Assembly (NCBI GenBank): GCA_934394585.1
Contig: CAKRQU010000002.1
Coordinates: 51,874 to 115,873, forward strand
Direction: 5' to 3'
DNA length: 64,000 nt
Source of the DNA: an uncultured Eubacteriales bacterium
GTDB taxonomy: Bacteria > Bacillota > Clostridia > Oscillospirales > CAG-272
Positions 27,147 through 64,000 of the stretch are shown piece by piece. The notes under the pieces are model-generated. The model had not been told where the DNA came from. It worked only from the letters and a program-made list of their open reading frames with translations, and did not search any database. The translations under genes and the position numbers were made by a program. Numbering within the stretch: position 1 is the stretch's first letter; each line of letters opens with the position of its first letter.

Positions 27147-27611
27147 ATGGCAGAAAAAAACACAAAAATCATAGCGCAAAACAGAAAAGCGCGCCACGAT
27201 TATTTTGTGGAAGATACTTATGAAGCGGGAATCGCTCTTTTCGGCACGGAAGTGAAATCGCTTCGTGCCGGCACTGTAAATCTGAAAGATTCTTACTGCT
27301 ATATCAAGGACGGAGAAATTTTCTCCACGGGCGTGCATATCAGCCCTTATGAAAAAGGCAATATTTTCAATCGCGATCCTCTTCGCGAAAGAAAGCTTCT
27401 CATGCACAAGCGCGAAATACTGAAGCTGAGTATGCTGACAAATAAAGAAGGCTATACGCTCGTCCCGCTTTCGCTCTATTTTTCGGGAAAGAATGTAAAA
27501 ATGGAGTTGGGCGTATGTCGCGGCAAAAAGCTTTGGGACAAACGCGAAACAGAAGCAAAAAAGCAAGCCGCGAGAGAAATAGACCGCTACGAGAGAGAAA
27601 GCAGAAAATAA
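27147..27611 (+). CDS. smpB: SsrA-binding protein
   Basis: [20 protein letters not shown] and LLMHKREI motifs. Immediately upstream of the tmRNA. Confidence 0.9.
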
Positions 27612-27614
27612 TAT

Positions 27615-27985
27615 GGGGCCGTAAAGGTTTCGACGGGGATTTTGCAGTACGGTAAGCGAGCGGAGATGCGGTACCTCCTTAAACAATCGCAAACTTAAAT
27701 ATAAACGCTAACAATAATAAAGTAGCAATGGCTGCCTAACGGCAGTGCCGCGGCTTTTCAGCCGCCCGTCGCTCCCTTGAGTATCACGGCTTGGGACTCG
27801 GCGTCATGCAGTGATGAACGTGAACGGAGATTTTTCTTGTTGTATCCGTCACGCATAAAACAGATACTTTTTATATAGCCTGTCTGTCGGCGATATAAAA
27901 AGGAATTTCAAAAGACATTCTGCGCTCGGAGAAAGCTGTATGAATAGGTTTTCGGACAGGGGTTCGACTCCCCTCGGCTCCACCA
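27615..27985 (+). ncRNA. ssrA: transfer-messenger RNA
   Basis: 5' GGGGCCGTAAAGGTTTCGACGGGG. 3' tRNA-like end GGACAGGGGTTCGACTCCCCTCGGCTCCACCA. Internal tag ORF ends ...AAC AAT AAT AAA GTA GCA ATG GCT GCC TAA (..NNNKVAMAA*, stop at 27737-27739). Confidence 0.9.
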
Positions 27986-28109: not shown

Positions 28110-28514
28110 TTAGCCGTTGTTTTCAGTGGTTCCGGAGGAAGCAGTTTTAGGTGTATAATCGTACTTACCTTCGGTAGTAGATTTTTTAAGCAAGCCATAC
28201 GTAGTATCTGCAGCAGCTGTGCCCTTTGTAGCTTTAGCATCAAACTGACCTTTTGTTACTGTGAAGTAGTAATCACCGGACTGAATTTTAATTGTAATGT
28301 TGGCGAGATCTTCAGCGTAAGACTTACCATCAGCATCGTTAGAAGCAAGCCAATCATAGTACATATTTCTTGCTTCCTGAAGAGCCTTGGACTCATTAGC
28401 CTTAGCAATTACATTAGAGAATGTAGGAATGAGTACTGCTGCGAGGATAGCGATCACAGCGATGACGATGACAAGCTCTACGATGGTAAAGCCGCGCTTT
28501 TTGTTGTTTTTCAT
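28110..28514 (-). CDS. prepilin-type (type IV pilin-like) protein, short form
   Basis: MKNNKKRG/FTIVELVIVIAVIAILAAVLIP has the class III signal: Gly-1, Phe+1, Glu+5 and a hydrophobic helix. 134 aa. AAGGAG RBS. Confidence 0.8.
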   Translation of the reverse strand: MKNNKKRGFTIVELVIVIAVIAILAAVLIPTFSNVIAKANESKALQEARNMYYDWLASNDADGKSYAEDLANITIKIQSGDYYFTVTKGQFDAKATKGTAAADTTYGLLKKSTTEGKYDYTPKTASSGTTENNG

Positions 28515-28734
28515 GGTTTTTGTCTCCTTGTTTAAAAAATATTTTTTTATATTTACGCTTTGCAGCAGTAAATACCGATGTGATTAAGAGCGGAAAACCC
28601 GTAGGTCGATGCGGGCGATGCCGACGCCTGAAACCCCTAACCGACGGCGGCACCGACCCGTACCATAAACGCGTTTACCTGCTCCGCTCTTCTTTCGAAA
28701 ATGCCGAAAAAGGCAATTTCCCGTGAAAAAATTT

Positions 28735-28781
28735 AAGCAGGCAAACATGCACGAACAAATTTCGTGCATGTTTGCCTGCTT
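28735..28781 (-). terminator. perfect 21-bp hairpin with T-run (minus-strand sense)
   Basis: AAGCAGGCAAACATGCACGAA-CAAAT-TTCGTGCATGTTTGCCTGCTT. On the minus strand it is followed by AAATTTTTT. Confidence 0.6.
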
Positions 28782-28846
28782 ATCAGGTACATATTTTATT
28801 ATTTAAAAGCGCGACAAAAGAACTACTTAGAAAGCAGCATGAATAG

Positions 28847-28905
<59 letters not shown>

Positions 28906-28910
28906 AAGCG

Positions 28911-28940
28911 ATTATACACAACCTATTCCTCCTTTGTCAA
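28911..28940 (-). promoter_or_regulatory. consensus sigma-A promoter (proximal) firing into the GACA tract
   Basis: Minus strand: TTGACA (28940-28935), 18 nt, TATAAT (28916-28911). The repeat starts 5 nt after the -10. Confidence 0.6.
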
Positions 28941-28972
28941 TATTTTTTGCAAAAATTTCTGATTGCATTACA

Positions 28973-29001
28973 ATTATACACCGCTATCATATTTTTGTCA
29001 A
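28973..29001 (-). promoter_or_regulatory. consensus sigma-A promoter (distal)
   Basis: Minus strand: TTGACA (29001-28996), 17 nt, TATAAT (28978-28973). Confidence 0.55.
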
Positions 29002-35389: not shown

Positions 35390-37114
35390 TCAGCCCTCCA
35401 GAAATATATTTTCGATAGAATTTATTTCATTTTCCGTCACGCCGCAGGAAAGCAGATATGAACGCGTCTGCTCCTTCAGCGTGGCTCCCTCATAATCGCG
35501 AAGCCCCTCGCGCATAGCGCGGATTTTGCCGAGAGTCATATTTGAAATACCGTATTCCTTATAGCAATCCTCCTCGGAAAGTCCCAGCATGGCTTCCAGA
35601 AGGAAGCATACTGTGCCGGTCCTGTCGCATCCGTAAGTGCAATGCAGATATACGGGATAATTTGAAGCATCGGCAAAATCGGAAAATATTTCATGTATTT
35701 TCTGCTTTCCGCTCTCGGTGAAAATCGCCATATACTGCGCCATGTCATAATATTTGTGTACCACGTTTTCGCCCAGCATATTTTTCCCGTTTACGGAAGG
35801 CGAACGCAGATCCATATCCGTATTTATGCCGAAGCTCTCGCGCATATCTTTTATTCCCGCTTCGGTAATGTGATAACCTTTTTCGATAGCCCCGTCAAGC
35901 TCTGTGCCGCGTAAAAGAAGTCCCTGACTTATTCTTCTGCCGTCAGTGGTTTTCCAGCCGCCTATATCGCGCACATTCGATATTCCGTCTATCGTGAGAA
36001 AACGCGGTGTCTCGGATGTTCTGAAAAATCCGTTTTTCGACAATGTTCCGTCGGACGTGTATGCCGTCACCCGATAATAATAAAATGTGCCCGCGCGCAG
36101 GTGAGAAAACGAAAATTCGCCTGCATTTTCGGCTATTTCATAGCTTGCAGCTCCCGTAAAAGAGGAGTTTTCCGCCACTTCCACGGTATAACGCAGAACA
36201 TTCTGCTCCGCGCCCGGTCCGTTTACGGAAAATCTCAGCGTCACTTTGTTTTCAAGATCCGTGCGCTCCCAATTCTGCGTGAAATGATACGGGATGACAT
36301 TGTCATACTTTCCGCTCATCAGATTGAGCTCGAGATACTGCCTTATTGCCTTTACCGTGATGAACGCATTTTCATTGTCGTTTATTACGACCAATTCCGC
36401 AGGCTTGGTTGTGGCGGTGGTTTCTGTAGTCGCTGTGGTAGTCGCCGTGGTTGTCGTCGCTGTGGTGGTAGTCGCCGTGGCTGTCGTCGCTGTAGTGGTA
36501 GTCGCCGTGGTTGTCGTCGCTGTGATGGTAGTCGCCGTGGTTGTCGTCGCTGTAGTGGTAGTCGCTGTGGTGGTCGCGACAGTTGTGGTTTCCGTGGGCG
36601 TCGTAGGAACCGTAGTTGCAGTTGTTTCCGTCGGTACGGTCGGAACCGTAGTTGCAGTTGTTTCCGTCGGTATCGTAGGCATTGTGACTGTCGTAGTCGT
36701 AGCCGTCGTTGATTTTGTTGTCGGTATCGTTTTTGCAGTCGATGTCGTTTCCGTAGTCGATGTAATCTCTGTCGTAGCCGTGGTTTCCGTAGCCGACGTG
36801 GTAGTCGCGACAGTCGTATCGGATGCAGTCGGCGTGGTGCTTGTCACCGTCGTTGCTGTTTCCGTAGTCGCTGTTGTCCCTGTAGCCGTAGTCGCTGTTG
36901 TCCCTGCAGCCGTGGTTACTGTAGTCGCCGTAGTCGCGGTTTCATTGGTTGTCGTGGTCGCGGTAACCGCTGTGGTATCATCTACGCCGCTTTTTCGTGT
37001 GGGTACAATCATAAAAGCTATCGAAATCATCAGCACTGCCGCGAGCGCCACAGTCATCAGTCTGTTTTTGGTTTTGAGTCGGGTATCTGCGTTTGTCTTG
37101 CCTTTGTTGCTCAT
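35390..37114 (-). CDS. membrane-anchored Thr/Ala-rich protein with C-terminal CX5R tyrosine-phosphatase-family domain
   Basis: N-terminal TM helix, then about 230 aa of T/A repeats, then ISNVRDIGG and HCTYGCDRTG (a C-x5-R-T P-loop, Y_phosphatase3-like). Confidence 0.65.
   Translation of the reverse strand: MSNKGKTNADTRLKTKNRLMTVALAAVLMISIAFMIVPTRKSGVDDTTAVTATTTTNETATTATTVTTAAGTTATTATGTTATTETATTVTSTTPTASDTTVATTTSATETTATTEITSTTETTSTAKTIPTTKSTTATTTTVTMPTIPTETTATTVPTVPTETTATTVPTTPTETTTVATTTATTTTATTTTATTITATTTTATTTTATTATATTTTATTTTATTTATTETTATTKPAELVVINDNENAFITVKAIRQYLELNLMSGKYDNVIPYHFTQNWERTDLENKVTLRFSVNGPGAEQNVLRYTVEVAENSSFTGAASYEIAENAGEFSFSHLRAGTFYYYRVTAYTSDGTLSKNGFFRTSETPRFLTIDGISNVRDIGGWKTTDGRRISQGLLLRGTELDGAIEKGYHITEAGIKDMRESFGINTDMDLRSPSVNGKNMLGENVVHKYYDMAQYMAIFTESGKQKIHEIFSDFADASNYPVYLHCTYGCDRTGTVCFLLEAMLGLSEEDCYKEYGISNMTLGKIRAMREGLRDYEGATLKEQTRSYLLSCGVTENEINSIENIFLEG
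36400..36975. repeat. in-frame degenerate tandem repeats encoding the Thr/Ala-rich linker
   Basis: Reiterated approximately 30-nt units such as GTCGCCGTGGTTGTCGTCGCTGTGGTGGTA. Protein repeats include TTATTTTA and PTVPTETTATTV. Confidence 0.7.
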
Positions 37115-40691: not shown

Positions 40692-40808
40692 TTATATAAA
40701 ATTTCTCCGAAATCAAATCAGCCGGATTTTCTCCGTTGCCCGCCGCACGCCGCGTGGAGGCTTTGATTTTGTGCGGCTTCCGACACGCTTTCGCGTGCCG
40801 GATTTCAA

Positions 40809-42080
40809 TTATTCCAGTATAAGCTTGCCGTCCGCGCCGAACGTGTATGTTCCCGCGGGGAGGAGTTTATTTGTATATGTGATATGCTTTGTGCAGTTCT
40901 TCACCGCTGTGAGGGTAGCACCGGAAATGTAATAATAGCTTCCGTCCGTATCCTTTACGAGACCTGCGTAAGTTGGTACATCATCCACATAGTAGCGGAT
41001 TTCACCGTCGGCGTCTTTTACTATGCCCTGCTTCATCACCATCTTGCCGTCCGCGCCGAACGTATATGTTCCTGCGGGCAGGAGTCTGTTTGTATAAGTG
41101 ATATACTTCGAGCAGTTCTTCACCGCCGTGAGAGTAGCGCCGGAAATGTAATAGTAGTTTCCGTCCGTATCCTTTACGAGACCTGCGTAAGTGGGTACAT
41201 CGTCCACATAGTAGCGGATTTCACCGTCGGCGTCTTTTACTATGCCCTGTTTCATCACCATCTTGCCGTCCGCGCCGAACGTGTATGTTCCCGCGGGCAG
41301 GAGTCTGTTTGTATAAGTGATATACTTCGAGCAGTTCTTCACCGCCGTGAGAGTAGCGCCGGAAATGTAATAGTAGTTTCCGTCCGTATCCTTTACGAGA
41401 CCTGCGTAAGTGGGTACATCGTCCACATAGTAGCGGATTTCACCGTCGGCGTCTTTTACTATGCCCTGTTTCATCACCATCTTGCCGTCCGCGCCGAACG
41501 TGTATGTTCCCGCGGGCAGGAGTCTGTTTGTATAAGTGATATACTTCGAGCAGTTCTTCACCGCCGTGAGAGTAGCGCCGGAAATGTAATAGTAGTTTCC
41601 GTCCGTATCCTTTACGAGACCTGCGTAAGTGGGTACATCGTCCACATAGTAGCGGATTTCACCGTCGGCGTCTTTTACTATGCCCTGTTTCATCACCATC
41701 TTGCCGTCCGCGCCGAACGTGTATGTTCCCGCGGGCAGGAGTCTGTTTGTATAAGTGATATACTTCGAGCAGTTCTTCACCGCCGTGAGAGTAGCGCCGG
41801 AAATGTAATAGTAGCTGCCGTCCGTATCCTTTACCAGACCCGCGTAAGTGGGTACATCGTCCACATAGTAGCGGACTTCGCCATCGGCGTCTTTTACTAT
41901 GCCCTGTTTCATCACCATTCTGCCGTCCGCGCCGAACGTGTATGTTCCTGCGGGGAGAAGCTTATTTGTATATGTTATATGCTTTGTGCAGTTCTTTACG
42001 GCTCTGAAATCGTTTCCGCTGATATAGAGATATCTGCCGTCGGCATCTTTTACCAGACCCGCATAAACAGCCATGCCGTC
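40809..42080. repeat. 219-bp in-frame tandem repeats (5 full units plus a degenerate one)
   Basis: Units phase at 41261, 41480 and 41699. 41261-41479 and 41480-41698 are identical by eye, and neighbouring units differ at a few positions. Confidence 0.9.
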
Positions 42081-59100: not shown

Positions 59101-60993
59101 TCAGGCTTTATATTTAGCGTCTACATTACCGTTAAATGTACCGCCGGTAATAAATCCTGTGCAGTTCTCGCTGTAAACAGCGTTGGAGCCGCCGTTGATA
59201 GTTGTAAATGTACCGCCGGAAACAGCCAGTTTCACTTTTGCAATAGAGTCTTCATCGTTATTCTGGGGATTGCTCTGGTGAAGTGCGGTGTAGCCCTTGA
59301 TTGTGCCGCCTGTAACAGTAAGCTCTGTGGGTAGCTTCGTAGTGTGCTGTGCCACTGCAATGCCGGCGCCTATTGTAGTTGCGCCATTGCCATTGGATTC
59401 GACTTCTGTCGGAACACCGTTACCTGTAATTGTGCCGCCGGTAACATTGAGCTTGCCTGCGCGAAGCTCGATACCTGTGTGACCGCCTGTGATCGTGCCG
59501 CTAGTGGTATACTCGGCATAGCCTGCGCCGTATATACCGTGACCTGTGCCGGTAAGAACAGCGGATTCATAAATATTGACTTTAATTGCGGGATTTACAC
59601 TAATATTCGCTCCGTTCACATAAAGACCAGCTCCGACACTACCGCTGGCATCATTTACGCCAGTCAACGTGCCGTAAACATTTATTACAAGAGCATAATC
59701 GTTGCCACTGTATTGACTTTTGGGGTTAACCAATATGCCTGACCACCCCTTGAGTGTCACATCCTTGTCAATGGTCACAACAGCAGGATTTGAAGCCTTA
59801 TGATCTACCACAATCGGAGAATAATTGGAAACCGCTTCCTGCATCGTGCCCTTGCCTGTAACTGTCAGTTCGCCCATATACAATCTAATGAATTTATTTT
59901 CATTGAATGTAATAGTGTGACCGTTCAAATCCAAGGTGAGTTTCAAGCTTGAATTGTTCATCTTCGCACCGTCAGATGTGAAATCTCTCAATACAGTAAT
60001 GGTATCACCGCTTTTCGCACCATATACAGCAGAGGACAGTGAGAAATAATTCTTGCCGTTTACGCTTGCAACAGGAGCATCAAAAGTTATATCAAAAGTT
60101 GAAAAACTTGCTGTATTGAAAGTTACCTTACCGCTGCTCTGGTAGGAACTGCTGATCAGCGAGCCCTCGTGGTAAACCTTCACATTTGACAGGTCTTCGC
60201 CAACACCAATTTCGACCGTAAAAGTTGTGCCCGCATTAGCAGTAACAACGTTTCCGTCCTTATCGAGCAGCTTGATATCATAAGAATAGTACACTTCATT
60301 GTTGCCGACTTTTACCACACTGCTTGATTTTGGAGTAAGTTTGAATGTATATTCACCATCAGCCAGAGATCCTGCGGGAGCAGTCAAAGCAGCTTCCGCG
60401 CGATTTACCGTGAATGTCGTTGCTTTCGTAGAATCAACAGTCTTGGTCACATTTACATTAAACCCTGTTCCTGCGCCGCCTGTAAAGCCTGCTGCTATAT
60501 CATAATCTGCAAAAACAGCCATTTCTTCCCGCTTGAAACCGAGCGTAGCTACAGTGCCGCTTTCTCCGTTGAGCGTGTCGCTCTTACGCCAGTCAGCCAT
60601 TTCTCCTGTAAAGTTTGTAAGCGCACTGGCTTTAACGAGATTTTCGCATATATTTCTTGCTTTATCTGCAAAAGTAGCGCCATCTCCGAGCTGTACAGGG
60701 TTGTTTATATAAGCAACTACTTTGCTCTCGCTCGCATCATATCCGTGTATATATGCTTCGTCGCCTTTTTTCGTCACGATTACGAGGTCTGCCGCGTCGT
60801 CGCCGCCGCTGAGTATGTTGGCGAGCATTTCCGTCACGAGGTTTTTCGCATCGGAAAGAGCCGCAGCTTCGTTTGCTTTTTTCACGAGGTTTGCATAAGT
60901 CGGGATCAGCACAGCAGCAAGTATGGCGATGACTGCGATGACGATGACTAATTCAACAATCGTGAAACCGCGCTTTTGATTGTTTCTTTTCAT
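59101..60993 (-). CDS. prepilin-type N-terminal domain fused to a large beta-helix-like adhesin domain
   Basis: MKRNNQKRG/FTIVELVIVIAVIAILAAVLIP class III signal. About 580 further residues rich in G/T/N with reiterated TGG.I.G / VTGGTI segments, suggesting a parallel beta-helix. Confidence 0.75.
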   Translation of the reverse strand: MKRNNQKRGFTIVELVIVIAVIAILAAVLIPTYANLVKKANEAAALSDAKNLVTEMLANILSGGDDAADLVIVTKKGDEAYIHGYDASESKVVAYINNPVQLGDGATFADKARNICENLVKASALTNFTGEMADWRKSDTLNGESGTVATLGFKREEMAVFADYDIAAGFTGGAGTGFNVNVTKTVDSTKATTFTVNRAEAALTAPAGSLADGEYTFKLTPKSSSVVKVGNNEVYYSYDIKLLDKDGNVVTANAGTTFTVEIGVGEDLSNVKVYHEGSLISSSYQSSGKVTFNTASFSTFDITFDAPVASVNGKNYFSLSSAVYGAKSGDTITVLRDFTSDGAKMNNSSLKLTLDLNGHTITFNENKFIRLYMGELTVTGKGTMQEAVSNYSPIVVDHKASNPAVVTIDKDVTLKGWSGILVNPKSQYSGNDYALVINVYGTLTGVNDASGSVGAGLYVNGANISVNPAIKVNIYESAVLTGTGHGIYGAGYAEYTTSGTITGGHTGIELRAGKLNVTGGTITGNGVPTEVESNGNGATTIGAGIAVAQHTTKLPTELTVTGGTIKGYTALHQSNPQNNDEDSIAKVKLAVSGGTFTTINGGSNAVYSENCTGFITGGTFNGNVDAKYKA

Positions 60994-61266
60994 AAATCTT
61001 TTTCTCCTTTAATAATAAAAATTTTATTTACATTTCCCCATTGCCGGGGTAAATACCATAGTTATTTCGCGGCGACCGTGCCGCAGGGCAAACCCTCCAC
61101 CGCTTCGCGGTCTGTGCCGCGCAAGGCAAACACCGTAAAATGACAATCCCTCAGTCGCCTGCGGCGACAGCTCCCTTTGCACAAAGGAGCCGAGCAACGT
61201 GCTTCGCACATTGCTTAATTTCCTTACGCAATGGTGCCAAAATTGGGCGAAAATCCGCAAAAAATT

Positions 61267-61312
61267 AAGCAGGCAGAGCTGCACGAAAAAATTCGTGCAG
61301 CTCTGCCTGCTT
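61267..61312 (-). terminator. perfect 21-bp hairpin with T-run (minus-strand sense), second copy
   Basis: AAGCAGGCAGAGCTGCACGAA-AAAA-TTCGTGCAGCTCTGCCTGCTT. On the minus strand it is followed by AATTTTTT. Confidence 0.6.
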
Positions 61313-61374
61313 ATCAGTTAAATATATTTAATTTTTGTGCGACAAAAGAATCGCTTACAAAGCGATATAAATAG

Positions 61375-61453
<79 letters not shown>

Positions 61454-61458
61454 AAGCG

Positions 61459-61488
61459 ATTGTACATGACCCATTCCCCCTTTGTCAA
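61459..61488 (-). promoter_or_regulatory. consensus-like sigma-A promoter (proximal) firing into the GACA tract
   Basis: Minus strand: TTGACA (61488-61483), 18 nt, TACAAT (61464-61459). The repeat starts 5 nt later. Confidence 0.6.
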
Positions 61489-61531
61489 GCGTTTTTTGCA
61501 AAAATTGTCATTATGTCTTCCGACAACACAC

Positions 61532-61560
61532 ATTATACTATTACATTGCAAAAATGTCAA
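61532..61560 (-). promoter_or_regulatory. consensus sigma-A promoter (distal)
   Basis: Minus strand: TTGACA (61560-61555), 17 nt, TATAAT (61537-61532). Confidence 0.55.
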
Positions 61561-61730: not shown

Positions 61731-63533
61731 TTATGCTCTTTTTCTCTTACGGATGATGAATACAACTACAGTCGCGCCCACTCCGAGAGCAACGACACCG
61801 ATGATGATCCAGACCCATACATTGGTTGAGCCGGTCGGGGGAGAAACGATCCCCGCTTCCACCTTGAATTTGGTGGTGGCATCACCGCTTGCCGTACGAA
61901 TGGTAAGGGTGTGTTCGCCTTCTGCCAGCGTTGCGAGGTAGCTTGCTTTCAGCTGAATGATGATGCTGCCTTCGCGCTTTTCATAATTCTCGGCAGTAAT
62001 GGTCTTGCCGTCTACCAGCACTTCGACAAAGTCGGAGAATGCCGCGTCTGACTTGAAGGTCAGTCCGTTTTCATCGCCCTTGCTCCACTTGGCATTTCTG
62101 CCGTCTGTGATGCTCGGTGCGAGCTTGTCGATGGAAACGGTCGTCTTTTTGTAACCGCAGACCTTGCATTCCTCATGCTTTGCTCCGGCTTCGGTGACAG
62201 TGGCTTCCTTGTCGATCTTCCATTCAAAAGCGTGATCTGCTTCGTCGCCTTTCGTTTTGCAGACCGTGCATTCGTGCCAGTGCTTACTGCCGTTGCTTAC
62301 CCATACGGTTCCCCAGCTGTGTGCCAGTGCCTCACCGGACTCAAAGGTTTCCGTTCCCTTTTCACCGCAAGAGCAGGAGTAGTAGTATACTGCCTTTGCC
62401 GTACAGGTTGCCGCACTCTTGAGGTATTTCACGTCGGTATTCTTTTCGGTGTAGCTGTGAATATGACCGGTTGCCTCTTTGATTACATATCCGCAAACCG
62501 TACAGGTCTGAGGTGTTGTCTCTGTTGCTGCCGCACCGGGTGTATGAGCCGCTTCGTCCTTCTTATTTCCGCAGGCGGAACACTCGTGCCAGTGCTTTGA
62601 GCTGTTCTTCGACCACGTGGTCCTGTAAGTATGAGCCTCGAGATCGCCGGACTCAAAAGTTTTCGTTCCCTTTTCACCGCAAGAGCAGGAGTAGTAGTAT
62701 ACTGCCTTTTCCGTGCAGGTAGCAGCTGACTTGAGATATTTTTCGTTCGTATTCTTCTGATTGAAGTTGTGCGTATGACCAAGAGCGGCTTTTATGACAT
62801 ATCCGCAGATGGTGCAAGTCTGAGGTGTTGTCTCGGTTGCTGCCGCACCGGGCGTATGTGCCGCTTCGTCTTTCTTGTTTCCGCAGACGGAACATTCGTG
62901 CCAGTGCTTGCTCTTATCTTTCGACCACTCGGTCTTGTAGTTATGTGCCGCAAGCTCGCCGTATTTCTGACCGCAGATGGTACAGGTTGCTTTGTCCTTG
63001 CAGGTTGCCGTGCCGCCCGTGTGGTCGGACGTCTTCTTGCCGCAGACATCGCAGTTGTGATCCTTGTTTGCGTCTGCGTGCGCCGCTACGTCCTTTTTAT
63101 CTCCGCAGACGGAGCACTCATGCCAATGGTTTGCACTGTCTGTCGACCACTCGGTCTTGTATACGTGACCTGCGAGGTCGCCGTATTTCTGACCGCATAT
63201 TGAGCAGGTTGCTTTTTCCTTGCAGGTTGCCGTGCCGCCCGTGTGGTCGGACGTCTTCTTGCCGCAGACATCGCAGTTGTGATCCTTGTTTGCGTCTGCG
63301 TGCGCCGCTACGTCCTTTTTATCTCCGCAGACGGAGCACTCATGCCAATGGTTTGCACTGTCTGTCGACCACTCGGTCTTGTATACGTGACCTGCGAGGT
63401 CGCCGTATTTCTGACCGCATATTGAGCAGGTTGCTTTTTCCTTGCAGGTTGCCGTACCGCCCGTGTGGTCGGACGTCTTCTTTCCGCAGACATCGCAGAA
63501 GTGATCGTTGTCATTGTCTTTGTGCGCTGCCAA
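61731..63533 (-). CDS. Cys/His-rich repeat surface protein with C-terminal SPxTG-type sorting signal; N-terminus unresolved
   Basis: Reiterated modules H.C.VCGKK...C.EKATC.ICG...W(S/T)....HWHECS.CG. C-terminus VSPPTGSTN, then a hydrophobic helix, then RKRKRA. The only in-frame start is TTG 63533, while the frame stays open to 63650. Confidence 0.6.
   Translation of the reverse strand: MAAHKDNDNDHFCDVCGKKTSDHTGGTATCKEKATCSICGQKYGDLAGHVYKTEWSTDSANHWHECSVCGDKKDVAAHADANKDHNCDVCGKKTSDHTGGTATCKEKATCSICGQKYGDLAGHVYKTEWSTDSANHWHECSVCGDKKDVAAHADANKDHNCDVCGKKTSDHTGGTATCKDKATCTICGQKYGELAAHNYKTEWSKDKSKHWHECSVCGNKKDEAAHTPGAAATETTPQTCTICGYVIKAALGHTHNFNQKNTNEKYLKSAATCTEKAVYYYSCSCGEKGTKTFESGDLEAHTYRTTWSKNSSKHWHECSACGNKKDEAAHTPGAAATETTPQTCTVCGYVIKEATGHIHSYTEKNTDVKYLKSAATCTAKAVYYYSCSCGEKGTETFESGEALAHSWGTVWVSNGSKHWHECTVCKTKGDEADHAFEWKIDKEATVTEAGAKHEECKVCGYKKTTVSIDKLAPSITDGRNAKWSKGDENGLTFKSDAAFSDFVEVLVDGKTITAENYEKREGSIIIQLKASYLATLAEGEHTLTIRTASGDATTKFKVEAGIVSPPTGSTNVWVWIIIGVVALGVGATVVVFIIRKRKRA
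63063..63506. repeat. two near-identical 222-bp (74-aa) in-frame tandem units; diverged units flank them
   Basis: The 222-nt period is shown by duplicated antisense ORF ends at 63203 and 63425 and by the duplicated protein block DH.CDVCGKKTSDHTGGTATCKEKATCSICGQKYGDLAGHVYKTEWSTDSANHWHECSVCGDKKDVAAHADANK. Confidence 0.85.
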
Positions 63534-63700
63534 GTCCTTCTTATCTCCGCAGGTGCACTCGTGCCAATGGTTTGTCTCGTCGGTTGACCAAGTGGTATTG
63601 TAAGCATGCGTGTGAGGCTTATCCTCCCAGATTGCGTATAATGTTAGCCCTCACCACGGGTGCTTTTCATAATCCTTTTCATTTTCATCCGATCACCGCC

Positions 63701-64000
63701 TTACATAATTCCGCTAAGGGAGTTCATCAGCACCTGCCCGATGACTGCAATGTAGATGAGCAAAAAGCACATCATCAGCGCCATCGACAGCTTCTTGACC
63801 TTGCGCGGCACAGTGTTTGCCTGTGCTTTGAGGTTCAGCCGCTGAAGCTCCTTGAACTTCATGGAAAGCGATGTCCAGAGTGCCGTTGTATCCGCAGAAT
63901 TCTCCACGGTTTCCAATGCCCTTACGACCTCGCTCAGCCACGCCGAGCCGATTCGTTTGTCAAGGGAATCCAAGGCGTTGCGGATATTACCGCTGCTTCG
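63701..64000 (-). CDS. C-terminal part of a type II secretion system F-domain (TadB/TadC-like) protein, partial
   Basis: Frame open to the window edge. C-terminal pattern (charged helix ...KAQANTVPRKVKK, then the final TM helix LSMALMMCFLLIYIAVIGQVLM) resembles T2SSF/Tad platform proteins. Confidence 0.45.
   Translation of the reverse strand, partial: RSSGNIRNALDSLDKRIGSAWLSEVVRALETVENSADTTALWTSLSMKFKELQRLNLKAQANTVPRKVKKLSMALMMCFLLIYIAVIGQVLMNSLSGIM

Follow-up and report, generated by a model that had tools for sequence, protein, structure and literature searches.

A predicted modular type IV pilin and a (GACA)n repeat-tract leader shared with a short pilin paralog in an uncultured gut Clostridia bacterium

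The window analysed here, a 64-kb stretch from an uncultured gut Clostridia bacterium of probably Oscillospiraceae-like lineage (contig CAKRQU010000002.1), contains two prepilin-type genes, one encoding a protein of 630 amino acids (aa), predicted to be a modular type IV pilin, and the other a short pilin of 134 aa, and each gene lies behind its own copy of a leader cassette with a perfect (GACA)n repeat tract. The pair had been pointed out in an earlier reading of these letters made without database searches (below, the sequence-only reading), and both open reading frames (ORFs) proved to be real prepilin genes by their class III signals and by profile scores above the cut-offs. Over all six frames of the whole window, G[FM][TS]xxE motifs in a pilin context were found in just these two ORFs, and the following features were assigned to them:

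59101-60993, minus strand: ORF of the 630-aa modular prepilin, with a predicted carrier pilin module, Ig-like domain and beta-helix cargo
28110-28514, minus strand: ORF of the 134-aa short prepilin, supported by profile matches, candidate backbone (major) subunit
60967-60993, minus strand: class III signal leader MKRNNQKRG of the 630-aa protein, seen in the sequence, with a predicted prepilin-peptidase cut after Gly9 and with F+1 and E+5

The 630-aa protein, an identical copy of which is held in the NCBI/ENA collections (P0001), starts with MKRNNQKRG/FTIVELVIVIAVIAILAAVLIP and the 134-aa protein with MKNNKKRG/FTIVEL..., the slash marking the predicted cut, and both have the short basic leader, the glycine at -1, the phenylalanine at +1, the glutamate at +5 and the stretch of about 20 hydrophobic residues of a class III signal (IPR012902). 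The Pfam model N_methyl (PF07963) scored 29.7 bits for the long and 33.6 bits for the short protein against a cut-off of 21.2, and TIGR02532 scored 25.7 and 27.8 bits, respectively, against 16.3. The equivalog pilin models (PilA, GspG, ComGC and others) scored far under their cut-offs for both proteins, and no subtype was assigned. Solved pilins in the PDB (geopilin, PilA and PilE) align to residues 5-82 of the 630-aa protein with a best E value of 2.8e-09, the alignments beginning at residue 5-10. The 134-aa pilin has more than 5,000 homologs, and among the 120 listed most are 112-147 aa long, with a few of up to 203 aa; by this homology, it is a conventional short pilin and a member of a very large short-pilin family.

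The two proteins are identical at 25 of 25 residues from R8 to T32 (RGFTIVELVIVIAVIAILAAVLIPT) and at 35 of 50 residues from RGFT on, and BLASTP aligns them at 56% identity over 80 aa (E 2e-25). The near identity that the sequence-only reading had extended over about 45 residues holds for residues 1-32, but thereafter the similarity decays up to about residue 80. At the same time, the same codon is used at just 8 of the 35 identical residues, and within the 25-residue run just 24% of the third codon positions agree, a divergence that is effectively saturated. Because identical residues go together with such a low third-position identity, the two window genes are best read as old paralogs with alpha1N under extreme purifying selection, in agreement with the synonymous divergence and purifying selection proposed earlier.

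The structure of the full 630-aa protein was predicted by AlphaFold2 (AF2) with 58 homologs, giving a predicted local distance difference test score (pLDDT) of 85.8 and a predicted template modelling score (pTM) of 0.74, and secondary structure was assigned by DSSP. The N-terminal 178 residues modelled alone (pLDDT 83.8) gave the same picture. Three domains were predicted:

60469-60966, minus strand: carrier pilin module, alpha1 helix (residues 12-62) and alpha/beta head (residues 63-172), from AF2 and DSSP
60079-60456, minus strand: immunoglobulin (Ig)-like beta-sandwich linker (residues 180-305), first part of the transferable cargo, from AF2, mostly at pLDDT >90
59119-60069, minus strand: parallel beta-helix cargo (residues 309-625), from repeated short strands in the AF2 model, pLDDT >90 over about residues 310-520

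The pilin-like N-terminal helix alpha1 is 51 residues long in these models (12-62) and is followed by the head, with strands at 70-76, 79-86 and 91-95, a helix at 108-121 and more strands up to about residue 172, after which a low-confidence hinge is predicted at residues 172-175. The fusion of a pilin to a large, beta-rich, adhesin-like body, claimed from the letters, is borne out by the model, but the accompanying view that this body had replaced the globular domain has to be given up. Because the AF2 model shows a complete N-terminal module with the cargo placed after it, the pilin head is predicted to be kept, and the Ig-like domain and the beta-helix to be appended to it; the break in homology is sharp and falls at residue 181. 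The estimate of about 580 beta-helix-like residues is likewise correct only in part, the modelled beta-helix being limited to residues 309-625 and preceded by the head (63-172) and the Ig-like domain (180-305).

Among the profile searches, N_methyl scored above its cut-off, but the Pfam Beta_helix and pectate-lyase models gave no match to the body of the 630-aa protein, and no Pfam family matched the Ig-like domain. Foldseek with the whole model and with the N-terminal module against the PDB and BFVD gave no match at E <= 0.001. The beta-helix assignment rests on the structure model together with weak fold matches of the body, which include AlgG, GH28 polygalacturonases, isopullulanase, pertactin, tapirin and phage pectate-lyase-like tail proteins. 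With three domains in the AF2 model and a body shared with proteins of non-pilin N-termini, the 630-aa protein is, as modelled, a modular type IV pilin, that is, a pilin module joined to a C-terminal module known outside pilins.

The sequence relatives of the 630-aa protein form two disjoint sets, one matching only the cargo and the other only the carrier. In the cargo-only set (P0002-P0028, 654-921 aa), residues 181-630 were matched at 65-74% identity; residues 209-657 of P0005, for example, align with residues 181-630 at 72% identity over 451 residues, the match starting exactly at residue 181 with none before it. In P0002-P0028, the N-terminus has a signal of the SipW-dependent type (TIGR04088, 20.4 bits against 19) as well as the start of Peptidase_M73, the camelysin/TasA family. 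Judged by this homology, the same type of cargo rides on SipW/TasA-type N-termini in other gut bacteria. The 630-aa protein itself has no TasA-like part and was not counted as a TasA-family member.

The carrier-only set comprises more than 80 proteins of 372-892 aa that have residues 1 to ~175 in common at ~44-83% identity and differ in their bodies, which are of the Beta_helix/NosD/Pectate_lyase_3, LRR_5 or Big_2 type or consist of Cys/His-rich repeats, the carrier bearing at least five further kinds of cargo. A search of 1.84 billion representative proteins with just the head (residues 60-178) returned only 49 clusters, in all of which the head occupies residues ~60-170 of the matched protein; 41 of the 49 matches have a length of 390-892 aa, with a few stand-alone proteins (177-211 aa) among the rest. 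These matches describe the carrier head as a small family of its own that occurs nearly always with varied cargo. Moreover, one syntenic locus, with the gene of an 820-aa Cys-rich surface protein upstream and GerE, SBP_bac_8 and YhhN genes downstream, encodes either a 388-aa pilin (P0039, loci L031-L033) or a 713-aa pilin (P0078, loci L035-L038), the carriers of which are 56% identical and the bodies unrelated. Because the cargo and carrier homologs are disjoint and one locus holds different cargo, the 630-aa protein can be placed, by homology, in a specialised family of carrier pilins whose cargo is swappable.

Both pilin genes are preceded by the same control cassette, as had been noticed in the sequence-only reading: the promoters, the (GACA)n tract and the hairpins are common to the two, which are 78% identical outside the tract. 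The elements are located as follows:

61258-61560, minus strand: leader cassette of the 630-aa gene, with P1 at 61532-61560, P2 at 61459-61488 and (GACA)19.75 at 61375-61453
61350-61366 and 61266-61313, minus strand: small hairpin, and terminator with T-run, of the 630-aa gene leader
60994-61257, minus strand: G+C-rich, poorly conserved spacer of the 630-aa gene, from the terminator to the ribosome-binding site, 265 nucleotides (nt)
28726-29001, minus strand: leader cassette of the 134-aa gene, with P1 at 28973-29001, P2 at 28911-28940 and (GACA)14.75 at 28847-28905
28822-28838 and 28734-28782, minus strand: small hairpin and terminator of the 134-aa gene leader

Both cassette promoters are sigma70-like: P1 is TTGACA-N17-TATAAT, which matches the consensus at 12 of 12 positions, and the promoter-like site P2 is TTGACA-N18-TAyAAT (11 of 12), which ends 5 nt before the tract and holds AAGGrGG and then an RTG codon in its spacer. 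P2 is followed, in this order, by CGCTT, the perfect (GACA)n tract, a 7-bp hairpin, UUCUUUUGU, an A-rich stretch and a hairpin of 21-22 bp with a T-run. The spacer between terminator and gene is 265 nt long at the 630-aa gene and 211, 149 and 67 nt in other cassettes (211-265 nt for the two window genes), and it holds TATAAA-like motifs; the spacers of the two window genes are 62% identical with many gaps. Because the identity of the two cassettes outside the tract (78%) stands against 24% at synonymous third positions of the adjacent coding sequence, the non-coding cassette is under selection. Apart from the two GACA tracts, the window has no simple-sequence repeat with a unit of 2-7 and 6 or more copies, and at both pilin genes this long perfect repeat lies in the leader of a surface-structure gene.

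Additionally, a G+C-rich spacer block of ~100 nt (…GGCACrGACCGCGAAGCGGyGGAGGG..TTTGCCC..GCGGCACGGTCGCCGC…) is common to the leader of the 630-aa gene (60994-61257, minus strand) and to L029 (9850-10000); it differs in the leader of the 134-aa gene, is absent from the L031-type cassette and has no Rfam match.

Tract copy numbers in related loci were read from assemblies, with one value per assembly:

L029, 474-aa pilin downstream: n = 2
L031 and L032, P0039 downstream: n = 8 in each
L036 and L037, P0078 downstream: n = 15 in each
L035, P0078 downstream: n about 14, with two substitutions
L038, P0078 downstream: n about 6, with a different promoter abutting the tract (ending 2 nt before it)

In the four sequence lineages in which the cassette was found, it always lies immediately before a pilin-module or short-pilin gene. 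Because the TasA-type relatives (L034) are without it, it would travel with the pilin carrier and not with the cargo. Assemblies in which the encoded 713-aa P0078 is identical do not all have the same tract copy number, which suggests phase variation. Contigs L001 and L038 terminate at the tract. In L038 (1-60), the left flank CTTGACTTATGCCGCAACAGGCATTATAAT-CC, unlike that of L035-37 at the same locus, abuts the ~6-unit tract at the contig end; the alternatives are a genuine variant with a swapped promoter and a join to another cassette from that genome.

Several searches returned nothing that could be added to this set. Another AAGCAGGCA motif, found in L035-L037 upstream of the neighbouring 820-aa gene, was rejected as a chance match with no cassette. 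A scan of JGI metagenomes with the tract flank GACAGACAGACAGACCTATT gave 21 matches, all of them unrelated microsatellites, with a pattern that was too narrow (the flank is GACCTGTATT in the second cassette lineage), and a scan of IMG/VR for the left flank gave 0 matches. No Rfam family matched either leader at the gathering score, the matches in the window being just a transfer-messenger RNA (tmRNA) and a hepatitis delta virus (HDV)-like ribozyme elsewhere; permissive Rfam scans for a known RNA or riboswitch in the leaders produced just spurious matches of microRNA type to the terminator hairpin, and an apparent GEMM-like motif seen by eye on the opposite strand of the leader was unsupported. 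A scan of GTDB genomes with the 630-aa protein found just two short-pilin loci, in one Subdoligranulum metagenome-assembled genome, where the short-pilin genes lie on 2 contigs (L006 9000-10000 and L007 2630-3628) with a near-identical upstream region of ~500 nt. This region differs from the window cassette and contains a terminator-like hairpin, a promoter CTTGACT-N17-TATAAT and a GGTGACAGAATGTGTATTCTGTCTAC palindrome. Pilin paralogs with a common private control region may perhaps be a general habit in the clade.

For five cassettes, the structure of the leader RNA was evaluated by RNAalifold and by counting pairs explicitly. Compensatory pairs number 6 in the terminator and 2 in the small hairpin. 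For the stem flanking the tract, in which AAUAGGUC pairs with GACCUAUU (in the second lineage, CAGGUC with GACCUG), 1 compensatory pair was counted along with six one-sided changes, and an invariant helix is formed by GACAAAGGA and UyCUUUUGUy. Of the cells counted, 97.7% were paired, against 34-42% when the partners were slid. Because many of the pairs are G-U, an RNA on the pilin-sense strand is implied. In the predicted fold, the (GACA)n tract forms the apical loop of its flanking stem, and the leader of the 630-aa gene folds at -80.6 kcal/mol (z -7.45).

The tract may at the same time be part of a short coding sequence, as two hypothetical leader ORFs can be drawn in the window:

61318-61467, minus strand: hypothetical leader ORF MYNRL(TDRQ)n... 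spanning the tract, stop 5 nt before the terminator hairpin
28827-28919, minus strand: hypothetical leader ORF VYNRL(TDRQ)n... of the second cassette, stop 45 nt before the terminator hairpin

The conserved RTG would be the start codon of the candidate leader ORF, (M/V)YNRL(TDRQ)n..., which reads across the tract. Beyond the repeats, frame A meets a conserved TAA 40-45 nt before the terminator, frame B a stop at the terminator base (TGA in CTGAUAAGCAGG, or UAA; 4 of 4 lineages) and frame C a stop 5-6 nt before the terminator (3 of 4 lineages), that is, by in-silico geometry, the stop falls either 1-6 nt or 40-45 nt before the terminator depending on the frame. In the window, the leader of the 630-aa gene (n=19) is in a "reaching" frame and that of the 134-aa gene (n=14) in the "early stop" frame.

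The model that we propose, and that as a whole we hold to be rather probable without regarding it as secure, unites a modular carrier pilin, its co-assembly with a short pilin and control by the repeat-tract leader. Since alpha1N is identical at 25 of 25 residues, one prepilin peptidase would cut both pilins and both would fit one filament core. The 134-aa pilin would build the shaft, and the 630-aa pilin would be built in rarely or at the tip, as a minor or tip subunit, where its modelled beta-helix would be displayed as a ligand-binding adhesin, most probably for glycans. Each pilin gene would be governed by its own cassette copy, consisting of one or two near-consensus promoters, a tract-capped stem, a small hairpin and a strong terminator; tract length would change by slipped-strand mispairing, each change would switch or tune read-through into the pilin gene, and the population would display different combinations of pilin and adhesin. 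Processing, polymerisation, tip location, adhesin function and the effect of the tract on expression are parts of the model that we infer.

How the tract might act can be specified further, in a form that is speculative and, in our judgement, improbable as it stands: (GACA)n would be a phase switch of an undescribed kind, a repeat-driven, translation-coupled attenuation governing the repertoire of pilus-displayed cargo. The stem with the tract loop would sequester the Shine-Dalgarno sequence and the start codon, the tract would lie inside the leader ORF, and n modulo 3 would decide whether the ribosome stops 40-45 nt before the terminator or reaches its base and disrupts it. With several such switches per genome, one per pilin gene, a stochastic and combinatorial cargo repertoire would result, the cargo modules also being exchanged with TasA-type fibres. 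Alternatively, by analogy with Haemophilus influenzae hmw1A, the length of the tract may set how stable the enclosing stem is and so act as a rheostat.

Several observations weigh against the proposed model. Among the window ORFs scanned, none has a T2SSE, T2SSF, Peptidase_A24 or PilM/N/O domain or a domain of the pilB/pilC/pilD type, which also confirms the earlier remark that no such gene lies next to either pilin gene; no prepilin peptidase, ATPase or platform gene occurs within 10 kb of eight related loci, and the type IV filament machine is assumed to be encoded elsewhere in the genome. Foldseek with the head against the PDB matched no solved pilin (best E 0.17), Pfam and PDB sequence searches of the body and of the head alone gave no relative, and the complete pilin fold of the head is deduced from predicted secondary structure and the alpha1 match. 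The fold matches of the body are all weak, at E values of at least 0.001-0.02 and template modelling (TM) scores of at most 0.35. As for the leader, copy number is equal within the pairs L031/L032 (n=8) and L036/L037 (n=15), the cassette is absent at the carrier-pilin gene P0115, and a promoter between the terminator and the gene is possible, in which case the cassette could be a separate small-RNA gene.

On this last explanation, the cassette would be an independent small-RNA gene made up of P2, a 5' (GACA)n tail and the terminator, the pilin gene would have its own promoter, and tract length would be without effect on pilin expression. The short distances from the promoters to the tract (5 nt for P2, 2 nt for the different promoter of L038) agree with it, as does the strong terminator, after which 67-265 nt of poorly conserved spacer with TATAAA-like motifs separate the cassette from the gene. 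The restriction of the cassette to positions directly upstream of pilin-module or short-pilin genes in four lineages, however, argues against an independent gene, and covariation with G-U pairs is found upstream of the P2 start, from which transcripts from P1 appear to be under selection; a separate small RNA is therefore unlikely in our estimation, though it keeps some weight.

The repeated orphan arrangement of the pilin genes, with no assembly genes nearby at eight related loci, also fits a protein that is never polymerised. The class III signal and alpha1 would then be an export signal and a membrane anchor, and the protein, once cleaved, would stay in the membrane or envelope as a monomer or a short stub and act as a surface enzyme or binding protein, for which the archaeal sugar-binding proteins of the Sulfolobus bindosome and the pseudopilus of type II secretion system (T2SS)-like machines are precedents. 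Class III signals on surface proteins that form no filaments are documented (PMC3047682); a second set of type IV pilus genes in Clostridium perfringens has been proposed to be a secretion system tied to a SipW/TasA-like operon (PMC11580942), and the presence of the cargo on SipW-type N-termini fits this link. Yet the carrier has, in addition to the helix, a conserved head of 110 residues at a constant position, the alpha1N of the short paralog is identical and held so by extreme purifying selection, a constraint that joint packing in one filament core would call for, and the modular pilins that have been characterised are assembled into pili (PMC8179133), so we consider a mere anchored protein rather unlikely.

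It is doubtful, finally, that the beta-helix body is a polysaccharide-active enzyme (a lyase, hydrolase or epimerase) on a pilin carrier and not an adhesin, for although the best fold matches include the AlgG epimerase, GH28 polygalacturonases, isopullulanase and phage "pectate lyase superfamily" tail proteins, and modular pilins with peptidase modules are noted by Raynaud et al. (PMC8179133), these matches are as weak as stated above, no catalytic Pfam family is found even at E 10, there is no PDB sequence relative, and the non-enzymatic beta-helix binders pertactin and tapirin match about equally well.

The surroundings of the two genes were examined as well. The first 18 kb of the window consist of housekeeping genes, and the 31 kb between the pilin genes contain smpB/tmRNA, an energy-coupling factor (ECF) transporter, dapB and a large surface-polysaccharide cluster with glycosyltransferases, a flippase, epimerases, LicD and a 1,735-aa NAGPA/choline-binding protein. 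smpB and then the tmRNA gene (27147-27985, plus strand; RF00023, 186.5 bits) are convergent with the 134-aa pilin gene, whose 3' end is ~125 nt away. Inside the polysaccharide cluster, 35390-37114 (minus strand) encodes a 574-aa protein with a C-terminal Y_phosphatase3 tyrosine-phosphatase domain, the N-terminal half of which is encoded by tandem repeats of 15, 30 and 36 nt (36435-36926). An HDV-like ribozyme of the Faecalibacterium prausnitzii type (RF02682, 55.7 bits against 44) is located at 40711-40777 (minus strand), between the gene of the 1,735-aa protein with NAGPA and choline-binding repeats and the polysaccharide flippase gene. Near-perfect, long, in-frame tandem repeats were found in two surface-protein genes, with 219-nt units repeated 5.4 times in the 1,735-aa gene (40824-41996) and units of 222 and 312 nt in the Cys-rich gene (62335-63574).

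The latter gene, at 61731-63533 (minus strand) upstream of the 630-aa pilin gene, encodes a 600-aa protein with Cys/His-rich repeats (HxW...H.C..CG), a C-terminal PPTGS and a transmembrane tail, and repeats of this kind are the cargo of the carrier pilins P0053 and P0115. As it stands, the 600-aa ORF is without an N-terminal signal peptide, and the syntenic 820-aa gene (L031, L035-37) has a normal one. At 63534-63700, a stub of 14 codons (MKMKRIMKSTRGEG*) occupies the position of the DUF4320 gene in L044. The missing signal peptide and the stub suggest a rearrangement or a 5' truncation of the 600-aa gene. The fragment at 63701-64000, which the sequence-only reading had taken for a Tad-type T2SSF fragment and thus for the only related machinery gene, could not be upheld as such: it matched no Pfam or NCBIfam model and did not reach the gathering score of T2SSF (PF00482). 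Its homologs are 73-157 aa long, those matching the whole fragment 100-157 aa, and are without Pfam domains; the best T2SSF score among them, for the 52%-identical P0266, is sub-threshold (E 0.056, 13.8 bits against 25.2). On another contig (L044), the gene of this homologous small membrane protein is followed by a DUF4320 gene.

To our knowledge, hardly any work has been devoted to the type IV filaments of uncultured gut Clostridia. If the reading as a dedicated carrier pilin with interchangeable cargo is true, it would extend the modular-pilin idea to abundant commensals and link two fibre systems through effector modules common to pilins and SipW/TasA-type carriers. If the leader does switch, it would rank among the rare examples of phase variation by simple-sequence repeats in gut Firmicutes and would open a way to study how such bacteria vary their surface adhesins inside a host. 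Since the class of the protein is already known, the protein by itself is moderately interesting.

The name "modular pilin" was introduced by Raynaud et al. (2021; PMC8179133) for more than 1,200 proteins in 264 architectures, with effector modules proposed to be shown at the pilus tip, the examples including Streptococcus sanguinis PilB (vWA) and PilC (lectin), CofB, and ComZ with a beta-solenoid. This class is widespread, and the 630-aa protein is in itself not unusual, contrary to what had been assumed from the letters. Like these proteins, it combines a class III signal and a pilin module with a short linker and a bulky module that is not specific to pili, and which in that class is "grafted", highly diverse and proposed to serve adhesion at the filament tip (PMC8179133). 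Unlike the S. sanguinis pilins, it carries Ig-like and beta-helix cargo without a database signature on a head family without a structural match, and the genes are orphans far from any pil locus, with cargo common to SipW/TasA-type proteins and a repeat-tract leader. New relative to the described modular pilins are thus the dedicated carrier head family, the cargo 72% identical to that of SipW/TasA-type proteins and the structured repeat-tract leader.

The tapirins of Caldicellulosiruptor (NF051896; bioRxiv 10.1101/359786) are similar in having a conserved N-terminal part thought to serve association with the surface or the type IV pilus and a variable, polysaccharide-binding C-terminal beta-helix, and the tapirin C-domain 6n2c is a weak fold match to the 630-aa body. 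Tapirin genes adjoin a type IV pilus locus, whereas the window pilin genes do not, and identity with the tapirins was rejected, as the 630-aa protein gave no NF051896 match (cut-off 600 bits) and the 134-aa pilin scored 19.3 bits in a partial match confined to its helix. Fibres of TasA-type proteins arise by donor-strand exchange (PMC9674648), and the SipW/TasA-like operon of C. perfringens is functionally linked to type IV pilus genes (PMC11580942). The TasA/CalY/BsaA subunits (PMC9674648; PMC11580942) represent the type of N-terminus that carries the 72%-identical cargo relatives, and the effector is thus apparently displayed on a second type of secreted, fibre-forming scaffold, as predicted from these homologies. 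The leader can be compared with the (ATCTTTC)n tract in the 5' untranslated region of H. influenzae hmw1A (PMC12721329). Common to the two are a long perfect repeat in the leader of an adhesin gene (a putative one here), its position in a conserved hairpin and a copy number that varies between strains. The tract found here differs in its tetranucleotide unit, in its host, a Gram-positive gut commensal, in its predicted place in the loop and not the arm of the hairpin, and in the terminator and the possible leader ORF that go with it.

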